From a virus (taxonomy: Duplodnaviria > Caudoviricetes), in the IMG/VR virus record IMGVR_UViG_3300048549_001527: a stretch of DNA of 64,000 nt; one strand, given 5' to 3'. Below, piece after piece: positions 3,564 through 60,978 of this stretch; position 1 is the stretch's first letter; each line of letters begins with the position of its first letter. The position numbers were made by a program, and so were the translations under genes. Below the pieces are notes generated by a model that did not search any database, was not told the DNA's origin, and worked only from the letters and a program-made list of their open reading frames with translations.

Positions 3564-6496
3564 TTTTTAGCTTTTTTCTTTGCCATAATTTTCTTAGCCA
3601 TTTTATATACACCTTTAGCTGTAGCTTTGGCACCTTGAGCAACCATTGGAGCGGCAAGAGCAGCTCCTACAACTTCTGGCGGAATACTTTCCATTGGTGT
3701 ATCTTTTTTATATTTTTTAGTAAGCTCATTAGTTCCTTGCTCACCAGCACCACAGGATGCCTCTTTACGCATATCCTTATATGTAGGTTTTGCTTTTGGT
3801 TTATCAGCGTATTCATCCATTTCACCTGCAGCTTTTTTCTTTGCCGCCGCCGCAGCTGAAAATTTAGCTAAGTCTTCTTTTTCATCTTCGTCAATAGTTG
3901 GTGTAGTATTAATATGTTTCTTTGAGCTTTTTTCTTCACCATAGCCTGCTTTAAGACCGCCCATCATACCGCCATATGTTTTCTTTGTTGCAGATTTAGC
4001 ACTCATTGAAGGACGCTGTTTACCGCTTGCTTTATTTTCGCGTTCTTTGTCCTTTTTGATTTCTTCGGGGGTTGGCGCTGTATACTTTTCTAAAAACGCC
4101 ATAGCTTGCTCGTCAAGATTTGATTCTACGTAACCTTTATCACCAGGCTTTTTGCCGTGGTTCATAACCTTTTTACCAATAGCAGTAAGGTTACCTTTCT
4201 TATCATACATTTGATTGACAAGTTTCTTTTCTGATGGTGATAAAGTTTCATCAAGTTCTACTTCTTCGCGGATTTTAACTTTAAACATTTTTTCAACTGT
4301 TTGTTTACCCATAGTCTTAGCAAGATTAGTGATTAACCATTCACGTGGCTCTGTGTCAAGATCATCTACAAATTTAACAAAGTTTGTACCTGCGTTGCCA
4401 CTTGACAACATTTTTGCGGCTTTCATAAAGTCTGCTTTATCAATACCACCACTTTTCTTTGCGTATGCTTCAATACTTGCCGCAGCTTTTTTCATGGCAG
4501 GAGTTGCAGCTTCAATTATATTTTTATATGTTTTTGGCATCTGTTCGTTTCCTTCTCCGCGTAACGACGCAAGTGATCTTTGAGTTGAAGTCATGGTTTT
4601 CTTTGGCAGTTTACGGCCTGTTTTTACTGAACGGCCCATTGCCTTTGCGTGCGCTGCATCCTTAGCACGTTGAATAGCAATAGAGTCACCGGTCATTTTT
4701 GGCGCCTTTTCATCAAGTTGAGTTTCCTCTTTACGAACCTTGTCGGCAAGGTCTTTATCTGCCTTACCCCAAGTACCTGACGATTTTGTTATAAATGAAT
4801 TAACTCTTGCGTGTCCCCATTGCTCAGGAGTTGTGCCTGGGCGGTGACCTGTTCGCCATGCCGCCACGCCACGATTATAAACTTTACGTAAAATACCAGC
4901 AGGCATACCTGATTTCGCCGCTTTATCTTTTAAAGATTTGCCAGCTTTATCTTCTTGTAATCCATCGCCTTCGCAAGTACAAGGATCACAATTACATTGT
5001 CCGCAAACCCATTCCTCTACAAATGTTTCTGTTGCTTCATATAGTTCTGCAATATCTTCAATGTCAAACTCGTTTGCTTCTTTAACATCTTTTGGTTTGT
5101 ACATTTTAAATCTTTTATCAAATTTTACTTTTCCGTTTGCAGCATACAGCATATGTGGACGTTTCATAATACGTTTTCCCCATAGTCCTTCATCAAGACC
5201 TTCAACAAGTTCTTCCCAGATCAAGTCTTCCGTGAAACCCATAGCTCTTGCTTTTTTGGTAAACTTTGACTCTTTAGTCTTTGCTTCCTTATCACCAGGT
5301 GCAGGTTTGTACGCAGCAGGATTATCGTCAGACATCTTTGCGCCTTTTTCAAAATGAGCAGCGCGCGCATCTTTCTTATTTTTATCTACACCTTTATAAT
5401 AACCTTTTGGTTGAGAACCCGGACGATCTGACACGTCGCTATCTTGCGGCTTTGTCATTTTTTCCATGAACATTGCAAATTGTTCGTCAAGGCTAACTTC
5501 TTCCTTTTTTGAACGTGCCGACGCAAGTCGTTCTTGTTCTTTCTTTTTAACCATTGGTATCATTTTGCGCGCAAGTCTATCAATACGTGCAGGAGGTATT
5601 TTTTCCATACGTTTATCAATACGTTCTTTTTCAGCATATGACAAGCTTGCATACTTTTTAGGTTTTGCTAACCTATCTTTAATCATATTCCTAGCCGACT
5701 TTTGTGCTCTTTGTTTAATCTTTTTCATATCAGCTTTTTTACGCTTAGCCCGTTCTTGACCGCGCTTGATTTTTGCACGAGCCTTTCTCATAGACCGAGC
5801 TTTTTTAAATCTTTGAACTCTATTTAGAGCTTCATCCATTTCTAAGTCGTTTTCTTCTGACATGTTCATCCCCATGCTAACTAACGTTGCGATTTTGTCG
5901 GCATCCGTTTTTAATTTCTTAGGCAAATTTGATGTAAACTTTTTCATATCTGTCGATGCATAGCCTCGCATTTTAGTGCCAGAAATTCCAGATACATCAT
6001 CTGCGTCTGGGTCTCTGCTACCTGCTGATACTACTTTAATCTCATCAAACTTATATTCTTTGCCATTATATTTATTTAGTGTAGTATTAAATTCTTTAAC
6101 TCTATCAGAGCCAGCAACCAAAACAACCCGTTTAAATGATCTTTCAAGTTGTTTCATTAGTTGGAAAATAGTTTTAGCATTTGATTTTTTAACAACAGAA
6201 CCAAAAGCTTTTTGGGCAAAATTGATTTTGTCTTCGTAACCTAATGGATTTTTCTTTTTGTCAACTGTATGTGTAAGGAATACGTGCGGTATTCCCTTTT
6301 CAGATTTAGCAACAGAAATAACTTTATTAACTAATTTTTCATGGCCTGCGGTCATAGGGTTCATTCTACCCCACGCAACAACTGCTGTCGCACCAGCGGC
6401 CTCGTCTATCGTAGGCTCAAGCTCAATGTATTTGGCAGAGTCAAACTCTTTAAAACCTGCAATTTTTCTGTCTTTCTTTTTTTCTTTATCAGCCAT
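3560..6496 (-). CDS. 978-aa modular protein: N-terminal cytidylyltransferase/NadD-like (HIGH-motif) domain plus several internal-protein-like modules
   Basis: WGRMNPMTAGHEKL (TxGH), VAGSDRV and SAG.RDPD...GISGTKMR motifs; repeated LDE/xxE boundaries downstream. Confidence 0.75.
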   Translation of the reverse strand: MADKEKKKDRKIAGFKEFDSAKYIELEPTIDEAAGATAVVAWGRMNPMTAGHEKLVNKVISVAKSEKGIPHVFLTHTVDKKKNPLGYEDKINFAQKAFGSVVKKSNAKTIFQLMKQLERSFKRVVLVAGSDRVKEFNTTLNKYNGKEYKFDEIKVVSAGSRDPDADDVSGISGTKMRGYASTDMKKFTSNLPKKLKTDADKIATLVSMGMNMSEENDLEMDEALNRVQRFKKARSMRKARAKIKRGQERAKRKKADMKKIKQRAQKSARNMIKDRLAKPKKYASLSYAEKERIDKRMEKIPPARIDRLARKMIPMVKKKEQERLASARSKKEEVSLDEQFAMFMEKMTKPQDSDVSDRPGSQPKGYYKGVDKNKKDARAAHFEKGAKMSDDNPAAYKPAPGDKEAKTKESKFTKKARAMGFTEDLIWEELVEGLDEGLWGKRIMKRPHMLYAANGKVKFDKRFKMYKPKDVKEANEFDIEDIAELYEATETFVEEWVCGQCNCDPCTCEGDGLQEDKAGKSLKDKAAKSGMPAGILRKVYNRGVAAWRTGHRPGTTPEQWGHARVNSFITKSSGTWGKADKDLADKVRKEETQLDEKAPKMTGDSIAIQRAKDAAHAKAMGRSVKTGRKLPKKTMTSTQRSLASLRGEGNEQMPKTYKNIIEAATPAMKKAAASIEAYAKKSGGIDKADFMKAAKMLSSGNAGTNFVKFVDDLDTEPREWLITNLAKTMGKQTVEKMFKVKIREEVELDETLSPSEKKLVNQMYDKKGNLTAIGKKVMNHGKKPGDKGYVESNLDEQAMAFLEKYTAPTPEEIKKDKERENKASGKQRPSMSAKSATKKTYGGMMGGLKAGYGEEKSSKKHINTTPTIDEDEKEDLAKFSAAAAAKKKAAGEMDEYADKPKAKPTYKDMRKEASCGAGEQGTNELTKKYKKDTPMESIPPEVVGAALAAPMVAQGAKATAKGVYKMAKKIMAKKKAKK

Positions 6497-23704: not shown

Positions 23705-24035
23705 AAGTTACCACTTTTCTGTTGCTAAGCAAGTGGCCAGCTCCCTGTGTTATGCCGCTAGGGCGTAACCAGATGGTGCAAAATTATCGTTTGCATTTGT
23801 AGTTTTTGGCTTAATAACGTAGGCCAACACGGTAATCTACTCTCATCTCTCTACGTCAGTCGATCCTATTTCGACCCCATCAAAGATACATTATAGAGAA
23901 AAGGAAACTTTTTTCAGCAATTCTTTTTCAGTTTACGTTCTCTCCAACGCTTAACCCATAATGTATCTATGGTGGAGTCGCTGGGTACCGCCCCCAGGTC
24001 CTGTCCGCATGTTGAATTGTATCAACGATTACTAG
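23705..24035 (-). ncRNA. ssrA: Permuted (two-piece) tmRNA
   Basis: Acceptor piece ends ...gacctgggggcggtacccagcgactccacca (CCA end at 23970). Intervening segment 23879-23969. Coding piece starts ggggtcgaa at 23878. Tag ORF 23794-23750 encodes ANDNFAPSGYALAA*. TTGACA upstream at 24068-24063. Outer ends are approximate. Confidence 0.9.
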
Positions 24036-24105
24036 ATATATATAAACTATATAAGGCCAAATGTCAACCACTCAGCCTTATATTTTATTAATTGTTACTT
24101 AAATG

Positions 24106-45357: not shown

Positions 45358-46169
45358 TGGAGCCAAAACTAAAAGGATTTCCAAAGTGCTACGTTGTTAA
45401 CCTTGAAGAAAGTGTTGAACGTAGAGACTATATGAATTCCGAGTTTAATAGACTCGGTTTAGATGGAACCGTCCTACAATACAAAAGACTTGAAGACAGC
45501 GATTTAAAGATTGCTGGCGACCGTGACACCTTGGACATACTACCATTAGGTGCTACTACTTCTCATCTCCTGACCATTAAGTGGTGGTATGAAAATACTG
45601 ATGATGAACAAGCCGCATTCTTTGAAGACGACTGTGACTTTAGCACTATTCAACATTGGAACTTTGTTTATGAGGATTATGTTAAGGAGTTTGGCGTATT
45701 GTGGGATGGTCTCCAACTTTGCTGCATGCACGAAGGCTGGGCTGTTATGTATCCACGCCACCGCAACGGCCACGATCATGGACTTCAATGCTATGTAATT
45801 AAGCGCCATTATGCTAAAAAAATTATAGACTATTATTTTGTAAATGATAACACAATACATTTTAAAATGCCGTATGTATTAAAGAGTGAAGATAGTAAAA
45901 AGTATAAACCTACTATAGAAAATGTTGTATATGGATTAGGCACTTTCTATATTCACCCGTTATTTAATCATAACGTACCAAAATTTCCATCAACAGTTCA
46001 CGATCCAAATTCACAACATTTAAAAGATGTTGCTAATCACGCATATGGATATGTTAAACAGTGGTGGGAAACCAAAGGAGGAACTGGTAACCTTAATGAA
46101 TTATTTACTTATGAGTGGTGTTGTCCACCACCTCAAACATTTTCCCAAGTCATGCATATTGATAGGTAG
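45357..46169 (+). CDS. Glycosyltransferase family 25-like protein
   Basis: YVVNLEESVERR, SHLLTIKWW and FFEDD motifs. Confidence 0.7.
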   Translation: MEPKLKGFPKCYVVNLEESVERRDYMNSEFNRLGLDGTVLQYKRLEDSDLKIAGDRDTLDILPLGATTSHLLTIKWWYENTDDEQAAFFEDDCDFSTIQHWNFVYEDYVKEFGVLWDGLQLCCMHEGWAVMYPRHRNGHDHGLQCYVIKRHYAKKIIDYYFVNDNTIHFKMPYVLKSEDSKKYKPTIENVVYGLGTFYIHPLFNHNVPKFPSTVHDPNSQHLKDVANHAYGYVKQWWETKGGTGNLNELFTYEWCCPPPQTFSQVMHIDR

Positions 46170-58121: not shown

Positions 58122-58604
58122 ATGAGCCATCAAAACGAATATGACGTGACTGTCGTTAAAGTAGTCGACGGTGATACTGTAGATGTAGATATTGATCTAG
58201 GTTTTGGTATTTGCCTAAAAGATGAAAGGGTACGCATCATGGGTATTGATACACCTGAGTCAAGAACGTCAGACCGTGTAGAAAAACTATTCGGTAAAGC
58301 ATCAAGTAAAAGACTCGGCGAGCTTTTAGAAAAAGACGCAAAACTTATCACAACTGAAAACAAACATGGCGAGGATATGAAAGGCAAATTTGGTCGTATC
58401 CTTGGTGATTTCAGAGCAGCCGATGGGCGTTTAATAACAGAAATCATGGCTGAAGAAGGACACTGCGTTCCGTATTTTGGTGGATCAAAAGAAGACACTC
58501 AAGCAGCTCATATGGCCAATCGTGAACGTTTACTCGCTGAAGGATTAGTTAATCGTGAAGATTACGATAAGATGGTTATTGCAGAAGCCAACGAAAAAAA
58601 ATAA
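58122..58604 (+). CDS. Staphylococcal nuclease (SNase)-like protein
   Basis: VVDGDT, RIMGIDTPE and KFGRILG motifs. Confidence 0.9.
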   Translation: MSHQNEYDVTVVKVVDGDTVDVDIDLGFGICLKDERVRIMGIDTPESRTSDRVEKLFGKASSKRLGELLEKDAKLITTENKHGEDMKGKFGRILGDFRAADGRLITEIMAEEGHCVPYFGGSKEDTQAAHMANRERLLAEGLVNREDYDKMVIAEANEKK

Positions 58605-59156: not shown

Positions 59157-59395
59157 ATAGTGTTGAAAATCCTTACATGGAAGACGTAATTGTAACTGAA
59201 GGATTACCACGCCACGGGTCGCCTCAAGATCGCGGTAGTGCAGATGCTTATTACCATCGTCCTTATGATCCTCATTACTATGTTGGTGATTCTATTACTT
59301 CGGAAAGAGTAGAAAAAGACAATATGACTGTTGGTGAAATTGAGGCTTATAAATACGGTTATGATAATGAAGACGATCGTAAGGATTGGGGATGA
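59153..59395 (+). CDS. Early hypothetical protein
   Basis: Likely start 59153; HGSP.DRG.AD.YY.R...PHY motif. Confidence 0.6.
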   Translation: MNSVENPYMEDVIVTEGLPRHGSPQDRGSADAYYHRPYDPHYYVGDSITSERVEKDNMTVGEIEAYKYGYDNEDDRKDWG

Positions 59396-59501
59396 TTTAT
59401 TGTATTAACGGCAAACGCTTTGATTGTGTTCTTGACGCCATAGAATACAGAGATATTCTTGATGCTCATTATATTAAAGTGGTATGGAAGCAAATTAACT
59501 A

Positions 59502-59530
59502 TTGACATTCTGTTTAGAATCAGTTATATT
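59502..59530 (+). promoter_or_regulatory. sigma70-type early promoter with GAATCAG
   Basis: TTGACA-ttctgtttaGAATCAGt-TATATT. Confidence 0.8.
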
Positions 59531-59561
59531 AGTTATATCAAATGGAAAAAAGGAATCAGTT

Positions 59562-59693
59562 ATGGAACAGTTTATCACATTAGGCGGCATCATCTTTCTT
59601 AGTGGTGTTATTGGATATATTCTTGGTAACCGCTCTGGTTGGGCAAGCGCTAAAGAAATTTATGGAAAAGATAATCCATATGTAGATGTATAA
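59562..59693 (+). CDS. 43-aa single-TM protein
   Basis: MEQFITLGGIIFLSGVIGYILG...; SD aaggaa. Confidence 0.55.
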   Translation: MEQFITLGGIIFLSGVIGYILGNRSGWASAKEIYGKDNPYVDV

Positions 59694-59695
59694 GG

Positions 59696-59914
59696 ACTAC
59701 TTTACTCAGCGTCCGTGTAGAGGGAACCGGACCTAGAAGCACTTGGAAGAAATCGACTTACAAATGACGACGGTGCTATCTAACAATCGTATTAGATAGT
59801 AAATATAGCGAAACTAGTAAGTTAGATCCAATTGGTTTCAATCAAACTAGAGCGGCAATGTCAATAAGGCCGTGCGGAGAGATTGGAGATACTAGGGGCG
59901 TTGAGTAAAGTAGT
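59696..59914 (+). ncRNA. Candidate structured ncRNA of about 220 nt, family unassigned
   Basis: 19-bp closing stem (59696-59714 with 59896-59914) containing two G-U pairs; several internal hairpins. Confidence 0.65.
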
Positions 59915-59920
59915 TTATCA

Positions 59921-59997
59921 CTCGGTGTAGCTTAGCTTGGTAAAGCGCCTGGTTTGGGACCAGGAGACCGTAGGTTCAAATCCTACTTCCGAGACCA
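59921..59997 (+). tRNA. tRNA-Pro(UGG)
   Basis: Anticodon arm cctgg-tttggga-ccagg; TTCAAAT T-loop; encoded CCA; one U-U mismatch in the acceptor stem. Confidence 0.9.
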
Positions 59998-60002
59998 AAG
60001 GA

Positions 60003-60177
60003 TAATGAGGAAAACCCGACTAGCAGGTAAGAACTCATTATACTAAACCCTATATGTGGTTCGAGGCGCGTCGGACATATAGGTCGGTAAAAAGCACTGG
60101 TACCGTAAAAAAACCCAGTCGGTTGTTGCATACGTCAAATGCAAATAAGGGGAGAGGCACTGCAGAAAGCCTCTCCC
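60003..60177 (+). ncRNA. Candidate structured ncRNA with H-type pseudoknot
   Basis: Four hairpins plus pseudoknot cggta/taccg and actgg/ccagt. Confidence 0.55.
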
Positions 60178-60204
60178 TCGAAAACTATACAAGGATAAAA
60201 TATT

Positions 60205-60978
60205 ATGTTTTGGAAAAAGAATCCAGTAATTAAATTTCATATACCGGATGATATGAATATAAAGCCATATCACCCTGTACCGGCTGATCGTAGTATTCCG
60301 GAATGGTTTGTAAAGACACCAAAAGGTTGCCCAGCAGGAAAGCTACCAAAAGGCCAAGATCCAAATAAAGATTCTACAATTAAAACATGTATGCCTGTTC
60401 TTGATGCAATGACTGGAGGATATGTTGTAAAATCTCCAGTAGATATGAACATAAGAGCTTGGAAAGAAGATGGTGACGTTCATTTTGGTTGTGAATGGGC
60501 TAAAAGCGGTATGTCAACACATGATTTTATTAATTTTCATGGTACATGGCAATTAGGAAAACACTCATTATTTGATAAAACACCACCAGACGCAGTTGCT
60601 CTAAAACTTATTACTTGGTTTTGTATTGAAACACCACCTGGATATAGTATCTTGGTTAATAGCCATCACAATAACGATCATTTAAAAGATCTAGGAATAG
60701 AATTTATGACTGGTATTATAGACTCAGACAAATATACATTAGAAATTAATTTTCCATTTATATTTACAAATTTTTCTAAAGAAGGTGTATTTGTACCACA
60801 AGGTACTCCACTTTTACAATTATTTCCATTTAAAAGAGAAGCCTGGAACCATGAAATTATTAGCATGATCCCAGGCGACGAGTTTAGTAAAAAACGCCAC
60901 CGCAACATTACTGCATTACAGAGTATGTTTCGCGCTGGCTATCGTAAAAATTTTCGTTCTGTCAAAAAGTTTAAATAA
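60205..60978 (+). CDS. Conserved marine phage hypothetical protein
   Basis: KTCMPVLDAMTGGY, TPPGYS, GIIDSD and QLFPFKRE.W motifs. Confidence 0.6.
   Translation: MFWKKNPVIKFHIPDDMNIKPYHPVPADRSIPEWFVKTPKGCPAGKLPKGQDPNKDSTIKTCMPVLDAMTGGYVVKSPVDMNIRAWKEDGDVHFGCEWAKSGMSTHDFINFHGTWQLGKHSLFDKTPPDAVALKLITWFCIETPPGYSILVNSHHNNDHLKDLGIEFMTGIIDSDKYTLEINFPFIFTNFSKEGVFVPQGTPLLQLFPFKREAWNHEIISMIPGDEFSKKRHRNITALQSMFRAGYRKNFRSVKKFK

Follow-up and report, generated by a model that had tools for sequence, protein, structure and literature searches.

For about 50 years, stable RNAs have been known from phage tRNA clusters without a function; rnaC and rnaD of phage T4 (the stable RNAs of species 1 and 2) are examples. 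The T4 RNAs are small, are encoded directly after tRNA-Arg in the T4 tRNA cluster, and are co-transcribed and presumably matured with the tRNAs. GOLLD (RF01998), ROOL (RF03087) and OLE are noncoding RNAs (ncRNAs) of phages or prophages without an assigned function; they often lie beside tRNA islands and have multiple pseudoknots, and RNA-only assemblies of GOLLD and ROOL were shown recently. ROOL and GOLLD have been described as phage RNAs near tRNA islands, and covariation from one palindrome to another confirmed the intermolecular kissing loops seen in OLE and GOLLD by cryo-electron microscopy (cryo-EM) (10.1101/2024.12.08.627333). Here we compare with these systems a structured RNA encoded at 60000-60186 on the + strand of a 64,000-nucleotide (nt) stretch of viral DNA (Duplodnaviria; Caudoviricetes; IMG/VR record IMGVR_UViG_3300048549_001527), the whole of which is called the window below. 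A structured RNA had been proposed at this place in an earlier note, made from the sequence and its open reading frames (ORFs). The explanation that we prefer, with a probability of roughly 0.55, is that of a stand-alone structured ncRNA of marine T4-like phages which would be matured together with tRNAs and would associate with itself.

To collect relatives, pieces of the region were used as exact patterns in scans of IMG/VR; these returned 5, 7, 82 and 44 loci in turn, and seven of all the loci returned were chance matches. When positions 59400-60400 were compared by blastn with the first five loci, 60045-60186 alone was conserved (94-96% over 133-142 nt) while the flanks were unrelated, so that the RNA is a discrete module. 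An alignment made with MAFFT (A1; 61 sequences, 60 of them distinct) had a nearly invariant core between two hypervariable hairpins. The covariance model built from A1 (R1) found exactly one copy in the window, at 60028-60193 with 140 bits. Among 87 IMG/VR loci, 86 had one full-scoring copy (at least 88 bits), and the remaining matches were seven weak ones of at most 21 bits. One copy each was also found in five large viral records, one of which has 221 kb and is rated 100% complete. At least 120 metagenome contigs also matched; these were marine and included Tara and "marine metagenome" records. Pooling of about 87 IMG/VR loci with these contigs gave 123 distinct sequences. The conserved unit is 142-187 nt long.

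The family had no counterpart in the reference collections. At the gathering threshold of Rfam 15 the window gave only tRNAs and a transfer-messenger RNA (tmRNA), positions 59500-60300 at E ≤ 10 gave only noise, and 11 relatives at E ≤ 1 gave only tRNAs and one sub-threshold DUF2815 match. With the core as query, blastn found no match among 50,697 records of cultured phages, and a wider query matched tRNA-Pro only. In representative prokaryote genomes there were 14 pattern matches, about 17 being expected by chance (18 specified bases), and none fitted R1. An IMG/VR search anchored on the protein of the downstream ORF (60205-60978) found no match, and the relatives of this ORF in cultured viruses are haloarchaeal virus proteins, which are uninformative for the RNA. 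As judged from these searches, the RNA family is uncatalogued and is common in uncultured marine T4-like phages, once per genome. It may be among the about 10,000 candidate viral RNAs of a 2023 catalogue (PMC10690425).

The minimum-free-energy (MFE) fold of 59998-60204 recovered four hairpins and was modestly better than shuffled sequences (z = -2.35); with such a z value, a single sequence alone proves little. The structure of four hairpin stems and a pseudoknot (Table 1) was tested on the 60 distinct homologues of A1, with 500 shuffles and slid controls. Pairs were formed in 96.3% of the cells and 19 of the 33 pairs changed on both sides, values that none of the 500 shuffles reached; the slid controls were 35-46% paired. 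G-U made up about 4% of the paired cells.

Table 1. Coordinates of the parts of the RNA and of the features upstream of it in the window.
Feature	Position	Strand	Description
5' domain	60000-60041	+	helix 60002-09/60034-41 and inner mini-hairpin CC 60016-17/GG 60026-27 (alignment A3)
Hairpin H2	60049-60083	+	cctatatgt 60049-57/acatatagg 60075-83; base CCUA/UAGG kept, body hypervariable; apical loop GGCGCG 60065-70, containing self-complementary GCGC/CGCG
H-type pseudoknot	60085-60119	+	S1 cggta 60085-89/taccg 60101-05; S2 actgg 60096-100/ccagt 60115-19; loops L1 60090-95 and A-rich L3 60106-14
CGGUUG	60120-60125	+	nearly invariant, single-stranded; kept in 59 of 60 distinct sequences
Hairpin H3	60126-60144	+	6-bp stem ttgcat 60126-31/atgcaa 60139-44; 7-nt loop ACGUNAA
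Terminal hairpin H5	60149-60178	+	10 bp; gggagaggc 60150-58/gcctctccc 60169-77; 10-nt loop A-CUGCAG-AAA, palindrome 60160-65
Conserved 3' tail	60179-60186	+	CGAAAACU; blastn conservation with L001-L004 stops at 60186
tRNA-Pro(UGG)	59921-59997	+	CCA encoded; ARAGORN, Rfam tRNA 65 bits; RNA begins 3 nt later
Sigma-70-type early promoter	59502-59530	+	TTGACA-17-TATATT; 11/12 consensus positions

Both helices of the pseudoknot covaried. S1 was 99% paired; its first pair was C-G in 51 and U-A in 9 of the 60 sequences and never mixed, and the pooled 123 sequences had CGGUA/UACCG 90 times, UGGUA/UACCA 22 times and a mixed form 0 times. S2 was 98% paired, with one pair present as G-C (47), A-U (8) or G-U (5) and unpaired in none of the 60 sequences, and with A-U, G-C or U-A as its outer (fifth) pair. 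This covariation of S1 and S2 shows that the H-type pseudoknot is real. The seven outer pairs of H2 were 90% paired and four of them changed on both sides. H3 was 100% paired, with C-G, U-A or A-U as its outer pair and an inner pair changed from U-A to C-G in locus L088. In H5, seven of the eight inner pairs changed on both sides. The RNA belongs to a conserved, covarying, pseudoknotted family, and the covariation shows a fold that consists of a 5' pseudoknot domain, H2, the compact H-type pseudoknot, H3 and H5. All of the hairpins, the S1/S2 pseudoknot and the A-rich loop listed in the earlier note lie where it had placed them and are conserved with compensating changes in the 123 relatives. 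Its description of a compact tertiary RNA agrees with this pseudoknotted, single-copy family, and the conservation of pairings on which it had made the structure depend was found with both the covariance model and the alignment.

The note's proposal of switchable pairings fared differently. The sequences concerned are present: CCGAC at 60016-20 is complementary to the GTCGG copies at 60070, 60083 and 60118. CCGAC is confined to the variants of the 5' domain found in the window and L016. The 3' GUCGG copy stays CGGUUG when S1 changes to UGGUA/UACCA and therefore cannot replace S1, which covaries only with the 5' GUCGG copy. The idea of a switch was rejected on these grounds. Another proposal was that of a riboswitch-like leader for 60205-60978. 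In a riboswitch or attenuator of this kind, a pseudoknot aptamer with H5 as terminator would control read-through into the downstream gene. The order of the parts, a hairpin preceded by an H-type pseudoknot whose loop is rich in A, does resemble designs of the SAM-II/V or preQ1 type, and H5 ends 27 nt ahead of the ATG at 60205. However, no downstream gene or pathway is conserved. The RNA is followed by an SNase-like nuclease gene, by unknown ORFs or, in some members at once, by tRNAs, and it often stands after a gene 32 stop codon or a tRNA; phrog_7084 is downstream of the RNA in the window and L016 and upstream of it in L001-L004. No anti-terminator was seen to covary with H5, which is hypervariable, and S1 does not take the 3' GUCGG copy as an alternative partner. 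For the SAM-II/V and preQ1 classes we found neither an association with genes of one pathway, nor a covarying alternative pairing, nor an Rfam match. The leader proposal was thus not borne out, and we regard a riboswitch as highly improbable.

The 5' domain was present in about 60% of the family and missing from about 40%. It is composed of a short stem, Pa, a small covarying hairpin, Pb, and a pseudoknot helix (PK) that joins the Pa loop to the strand following Pb. Pa is AGGC/GCCU and covaries to GAGC/GCUC, GGGC/GCCC and GGU/ACC. The pseudoknot helix occurs as GGG/CCC, GAG/CUC, GACGGC/GCCGUC and, in the window and L016, AAUGAG/CUCAUU. The first hairpin of the earlier note (taatgag 60003-09/ctcatta 60034-40) is the window form of this helix; the domain reads there as one long hairpin because Pa is shrunk to two G-C pairs. 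Among the first 60 sequences, H2 fell into about 16 types that could not be aligned with one another. In the H-type pseudoknot, the 5' strand of S2 abuts the 3' strand of S1 with zero nucleotides between them. CGGUUG does not covary with S1. Past the H5 stem, 108 of the 123 sequences had GA within 5 nt (60179-60181 in the window).

This layout bears on another rival explanation, a self-cleaving ribozyme that would free the 3' end of a tRNA, as do the theta ribozymes related to those of hepatitis delta virus (HDV). Theta ribozymes adjoin tRNA genes in phages and are pseudoknotted (PMC10879173). The RNA studied here has pseudoknots and many invariant nucleotides, and it starts directly past the tRNA CCA in 15 of 61 distinct genomic contexts. 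Its strand order, on the other hand, is not HDV-like (P1-P2-P3/L3-P1'-P4-C-P2'): there is no P3/L3 hairpin between the 5' strand of S2 and the 3' strand of S1, nor in the 5' domain, which holds only Pa, PK and Pb. The nested double pseudoknot with P3/L3 and the catalytic C in J4/2 of theta ribozymes are both missing. No Rfam 15 ribozyme matched even at E ≤ 10, and the majority of members have no tRNA next to them, many following a protein gene. A ribozyme of this kind has, in our judgement, a very slim chance of being correct.

The loop of H5 followed a strict pattern of A or U, a 6-nt palindrome, A or U, then A and R. The palindrome was present in all 123 sequences, as CUGCAG in 93, CCUAGG in 27 and CUCGAG in 3. 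On A1, 180 of 180 cells of its symmetric pairs were complementary, and two of the three pairs covaried. The covarying pairs include the central adjacent nucleotides, which are unable to pair with each other inside one loop. Both CUGCAG and CCUAGG were found within one H2 type (L039, L058 and L076 versus L023, L027 and L041), so that the switch occurred more than once, or was exchanged.

H2 likewise contained a perfect palindrome of at least 4 nt in every distinct sequence, in most H2 types at the apex. Eight central tetranucleotides were found (GGCC, UCGA, GUAC, ACGU, GCGC, UGCA, UUAA and GAUC), and the palindromes were often 8-14 nt long, for example CCCGUACGGG, CGCUCGAGCG, CCUACGUAGG and CCUUCGAAGG; GGAUCC was also found. 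No loop of the GNRA or UNCG type was seen at the H2 apex. CUGCAG, which is in H5 of three quarters of the family, was at the H2 apex of 5 sequences, all of which had CCUAGG in H5. This combination is what would be expected if the two loops must not cross-pair. The palindromic H5 loop in 123 of 123 sequences and the H2 palindromes are newly seen here. From these patterns the RNA is predicted to self-associate through H5, and probably through H2 also.

Several known RNAs with loop-loop pairing resemble this RNA in part. The loop palindromes of H5 (all 123 sequences) and H2 (the eight central types) covary yet stay self-complementary, a trait of the GOLLD, ROOL and OLE kind. The dimerization initiation site (DIS) of HIV-1 has a palindromic loop with unpaired purine flanks, and Moloney murine leukaemia virus (MoMuLV) RNA has kissing GACG tetraloops. 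H5 is like the former in its 6-nt palindrome, its unpaired purine flanks and its loop of 9-10 nt; the H2 apex is like the latter in its self-complementary tetraloop. These two are signals of retroviral genomic RNA, whereas the RNA here is a small phage RNA. The phi29 packaging RNA, pRNA (RF00044), is an early RNA of about 120-174 nt that forms a ring by intermolecular loop-loop pairing. It is similar as a phage-encoded small RNA of comparable size and early expression, but it uses two different complementary loops and belongs to the packaging motor of phi29-like podoviruses, and Rfam gave no match to it here.

Palindromes might also be read at the level of DNA, as a replication or recombination site or a site bound by a protein. 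Those in the variable loops are identical to restriction-type sites (CTGCAG, CCTAGG, CTCGAG, GGTACC and GGATCC), and the module appears to move between genomic contexts. As an observation apart, H2 of the window is identical to, or one base different from, that of L001-L005 and L007, although flanks and 5' domains show no relationship, which suggests that phage genomes have recently exchanged the RNA module. Four observations speak against a DNA element. The interleaved covariation of the pseudoknot and the A-rich loops are features of RNA, and the G-U cells would be A-C on the other strand. The orientation is strictly tied to the tRNAs and to the upstream genes, as described below. The H5 palindrome, flanked by A and AAR, is displaced by one nucleotide from the axis of the inverted repeat and is therefore not a mere extension of it. 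We consider an element acting as DNA very improbable.

In the survey of the 61 distinct contexts, a tRNA was at most 600 nt away in 32, and all 57 such tRNAs shared the strand of the RNA. A tRNA followed the RNA at once in 3 contexts. At about 15 loci the RNA begins 2-3 nt past the stop codon of a protein of 293-325 aa that ends in ..DDDTMSYFAKLAAED. This protein is a gene 32-type single-stranded DNA-binding protein (SSB; phrog_224, 371 bits), and its presence upstream in relatives indicates that the carriers are T4-like phages. In L001-L004 the promoter sequence of the window stands directly in front of the RNA. The orientation of the tRNAs, the position of gene 32 and of the promoter, and the G-U pairs together establish that the + strand is the strand of the RNA and suggest that the RNA is transcribed early with the tRNAs.

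The position of the RNA is that of T4 rnaC and rnaD: in the window it follows tRNA-Pro by 3 nt, the nearby tRNAs are on its strand, and relatives have the phrog_224 SSB. We searched T4 69500-73500 with R1 with filters off, and the best score was 5.1 bits, not at rnaC or rnaD. Their MFE folds, from which pseudoknots cannot be read, lack the layout of hairpins with palindromic loops, and rnaC has a tRNA-like T arm. The T4 RNAs are thus positional analogues only and not homologous. GOLLD, ROOL and OLE differ in size (580 to more than 800 nt, against about 130-190 nt here). Neither RF01998 nor RF03087 matched, the unit of 142-187 nt is not an RNA of more than 500 nt with a conserved 3' core, and nothing seen here points to cages.

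The same contexts bear most directly on a cis-acting explanation. According to it, the RNA would be a 3'-end or intercistronic element without a function in trans: a structured terminator, a module for the stability or processing of gene 32 mRNA or tRNA precursors, or a punctuation of the early operon. The start just past the gene 32 stop codon would suit such an element, as would its constant place on the transcribed strand and H5 as a GC-rich hairpin of 10-12 bp. At least 4 T were found in the first 6 nt past the H5 stem in 15 of the 123 sequences, and in most of these the U's pair with an upstream A-run; by a looser count, 28 of 61 contexts had a stretch of 6 nt with 4 or more T no farther than about 10 nt from the end of the stem. 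The window and many relatives, by contrast, have no U-run past H5. A terminator or stabiliser needs no set of about 30 invariant nucleotides, two pseudoknots and palindromic loops, and the module is conserved while its flanks change. In L003 a promoter of its own stands before the RNA, and there is no gene upstream that it could protect. A purely cis-acting element is unlikely in view of these points, though it keeps appreciable weight.

The nearness of gene 32 also allows an RNA that would titrate or regulate gp32, the SSB itself, or another conserved factor, comparable with the pseudoknot in the T4 gene 32 leader. It is known that T4 gp32 recognises an RNA pseudoknot (also PMC10690425), and in roughly one context in four the RNA is located immediately 3' of gene 32. 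In the window and at most loci, however, gene 32 is not its neighbour. The site in T4 is a 5' leader and not a 3' element, and there is no similarity of sequence or model to test. Such a role would be compatible with the preferred reading of a stand-alone, self-associating ncRNA; taken as an explanation of its own, we think it quite improbable.

The non-coding gap 59694-60204 (510 nt) contains tRNA-Pro and the RNA under study. A second structured RNA of an unrelated family was seen at 59694-59916 (+), just upstream of tRNA-Pro. Its family lies directly 3' of the studied RNA in L046, L047, L059, L067, L075 and L082. In the window and L016 it is found 5' of the studied RNA, the two being separated by a tRNA, and at other loci it is kilobases off. 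The earlier note had considered one RNA of about 480 nt with an embedded tRNA. With such variation in order and distance there is no fixed unit of this kind, and the two RNAs are separate modules; what stands of the idea is their probable co-transcription in the window, where there is a promoter and no terminator in between. Downstream of the promoter at 59502-59530, no terminator-like sites were found in a terminator scan of 59300-60400, and this strong promoter probably drives a small ORF, the neighbour RNA, tRNA-Pro and the RNA at 60000-60186 as a single transcript.

Under the preferred reading of a stand-alone ncRNA, host RNA polymerase would transcribe the RNA early from the 59502 promoter, together with the small ORF, the neighbour RNA and tRNA-Pro. 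Maturation of the 3' end of tRNA-Pro would set its 5' end, and the long H5 hairpin would protect or define its 3' end. In the folded RNA, CGGUUG, the ACGUNAA loop and the GA past H5 would be exposed as a likely contact surface. The 6-nt word of the H5 loop with its unpaired purine flanks, and the H2 apex with its self-complementary stretch of at least 4 nt, would make homotypic loop-loop contacts between copies. Its working form would then be a dimer or a larger assembly, like those demonstrated for OLE, ROOL and GOLLD.

Several points weigh against this reading. A cis role in termination or mRNA stability retains some chance, since at about 15 loci the RNA is the 3' untranslated region (UTR) of gene 32; the U-rich stretch right past H5 belongs here too, in the minority of sequences counted above. 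The palindrome switches may represent few independent events. The palindromes centred at the H2 apex could have arisen by template-switch perfecting of hairpin DNA without selection.

Three further pairings or motifs were considered and not retained. A K-turn around H5, with the GA past the stem, and base pairing of CGGUUG to the 3' tail or to 16S rRNA were looked for by eye; both were unconvincing and no better than chance, and neither is claimed. A GGUU/AACY helix closing H3 and H5 had its partner in only 20 of the 123 sequences. At the base of H5 we observed a conserved motif, AUAR before the stem and GA after it.

Two self-complementary loops on one molecule could give a dimer, a ring or a chain. 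As a tentative extension, to which we would give less than even odds, the RNA could be a minimal self-assembling RNA of about 130-190 nt, in which two orthogonal self-complementary loops on a rigid double-pseudoknot body would build RNA-only dimers, rings or filaments during infection. If this is true, it would parallel the GOLLD and ROOL nanocages on a small scale and would be produced in marine T4-like phages together with tRNAs and another self-pairing RNA (the neighbour at 59694-59916). The family is abundant in ocean viromes, with at least 200 contigs. With its two clean covarying self-pairing loops, the RNA is small enough for routine biochemistry, crystallography and cryo-EM. It would thus be a tractable model for why phages place self-associating RNAs beside tRNAs and for what the invariant pseudoknot core binds. 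The covariance model is ready for use on an RNA gene that is missing from Rfam and from phage annotations.

The sub-threshold DUF2815 match mentioned above was to the DUF2815 RNA (RF03084), at L057 1304-1365 (-). It covers only H5 and its flank, up to the Shine-Dalgarno region of the next gene (a CCUA..GAAG loop, then AAAGGA..AUG), and scores 29.4 bits against a gathering threshold of 41.2; the window had no such match. A distant hairpin module may be common to the DUF2815 RNA and H5.

The G+C content of the window is about 37%, its proteins match phage families, and it contains four tRNA genes (ARAGORN, Rfam). The small ORF that comes immediately after the early promoter and before the RNAs (59563-59693, +) encodes about 43 aa from its ATG (MEQFITLGGIIFLSGVIGYILG...); its product is hydrophobic and had no family match. 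An SNase-like nuclease (PF00565, phrog_452) is encoded at 58122-58604 (+). A gene for such a nuclease was near the RNA at 16 of 86 loci, on either side and at distances from 25 nt to 11 kb. With so few loci and so variable a distance and side, a tight link to the RNA was rejected, and the nearness looks like regional synteny and not like a functional pair.

ARAGORN also called an 87-nt tRNA-Asn with the unusual anticodon ATT at 45400-45486 (-), to which no Rfam tRNA matched at the gathering score; the call is perhaps false, or the tRNA aberrant. The tmRNA gene of the window, at 23706-24071 (-), is a permuted, two-piece gene of the alpha type (RF01849, 112 bits; RF04321, 120 bits), which hints at an alphaproteobacterial host. 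In L003, a stretch of about 120 nt between the RNA and the next tRNA (4240-4362, -) is closed by CTTAATACTG/CAGTATTAAG and looks like a third structured RNA of the same tRNA cluster.

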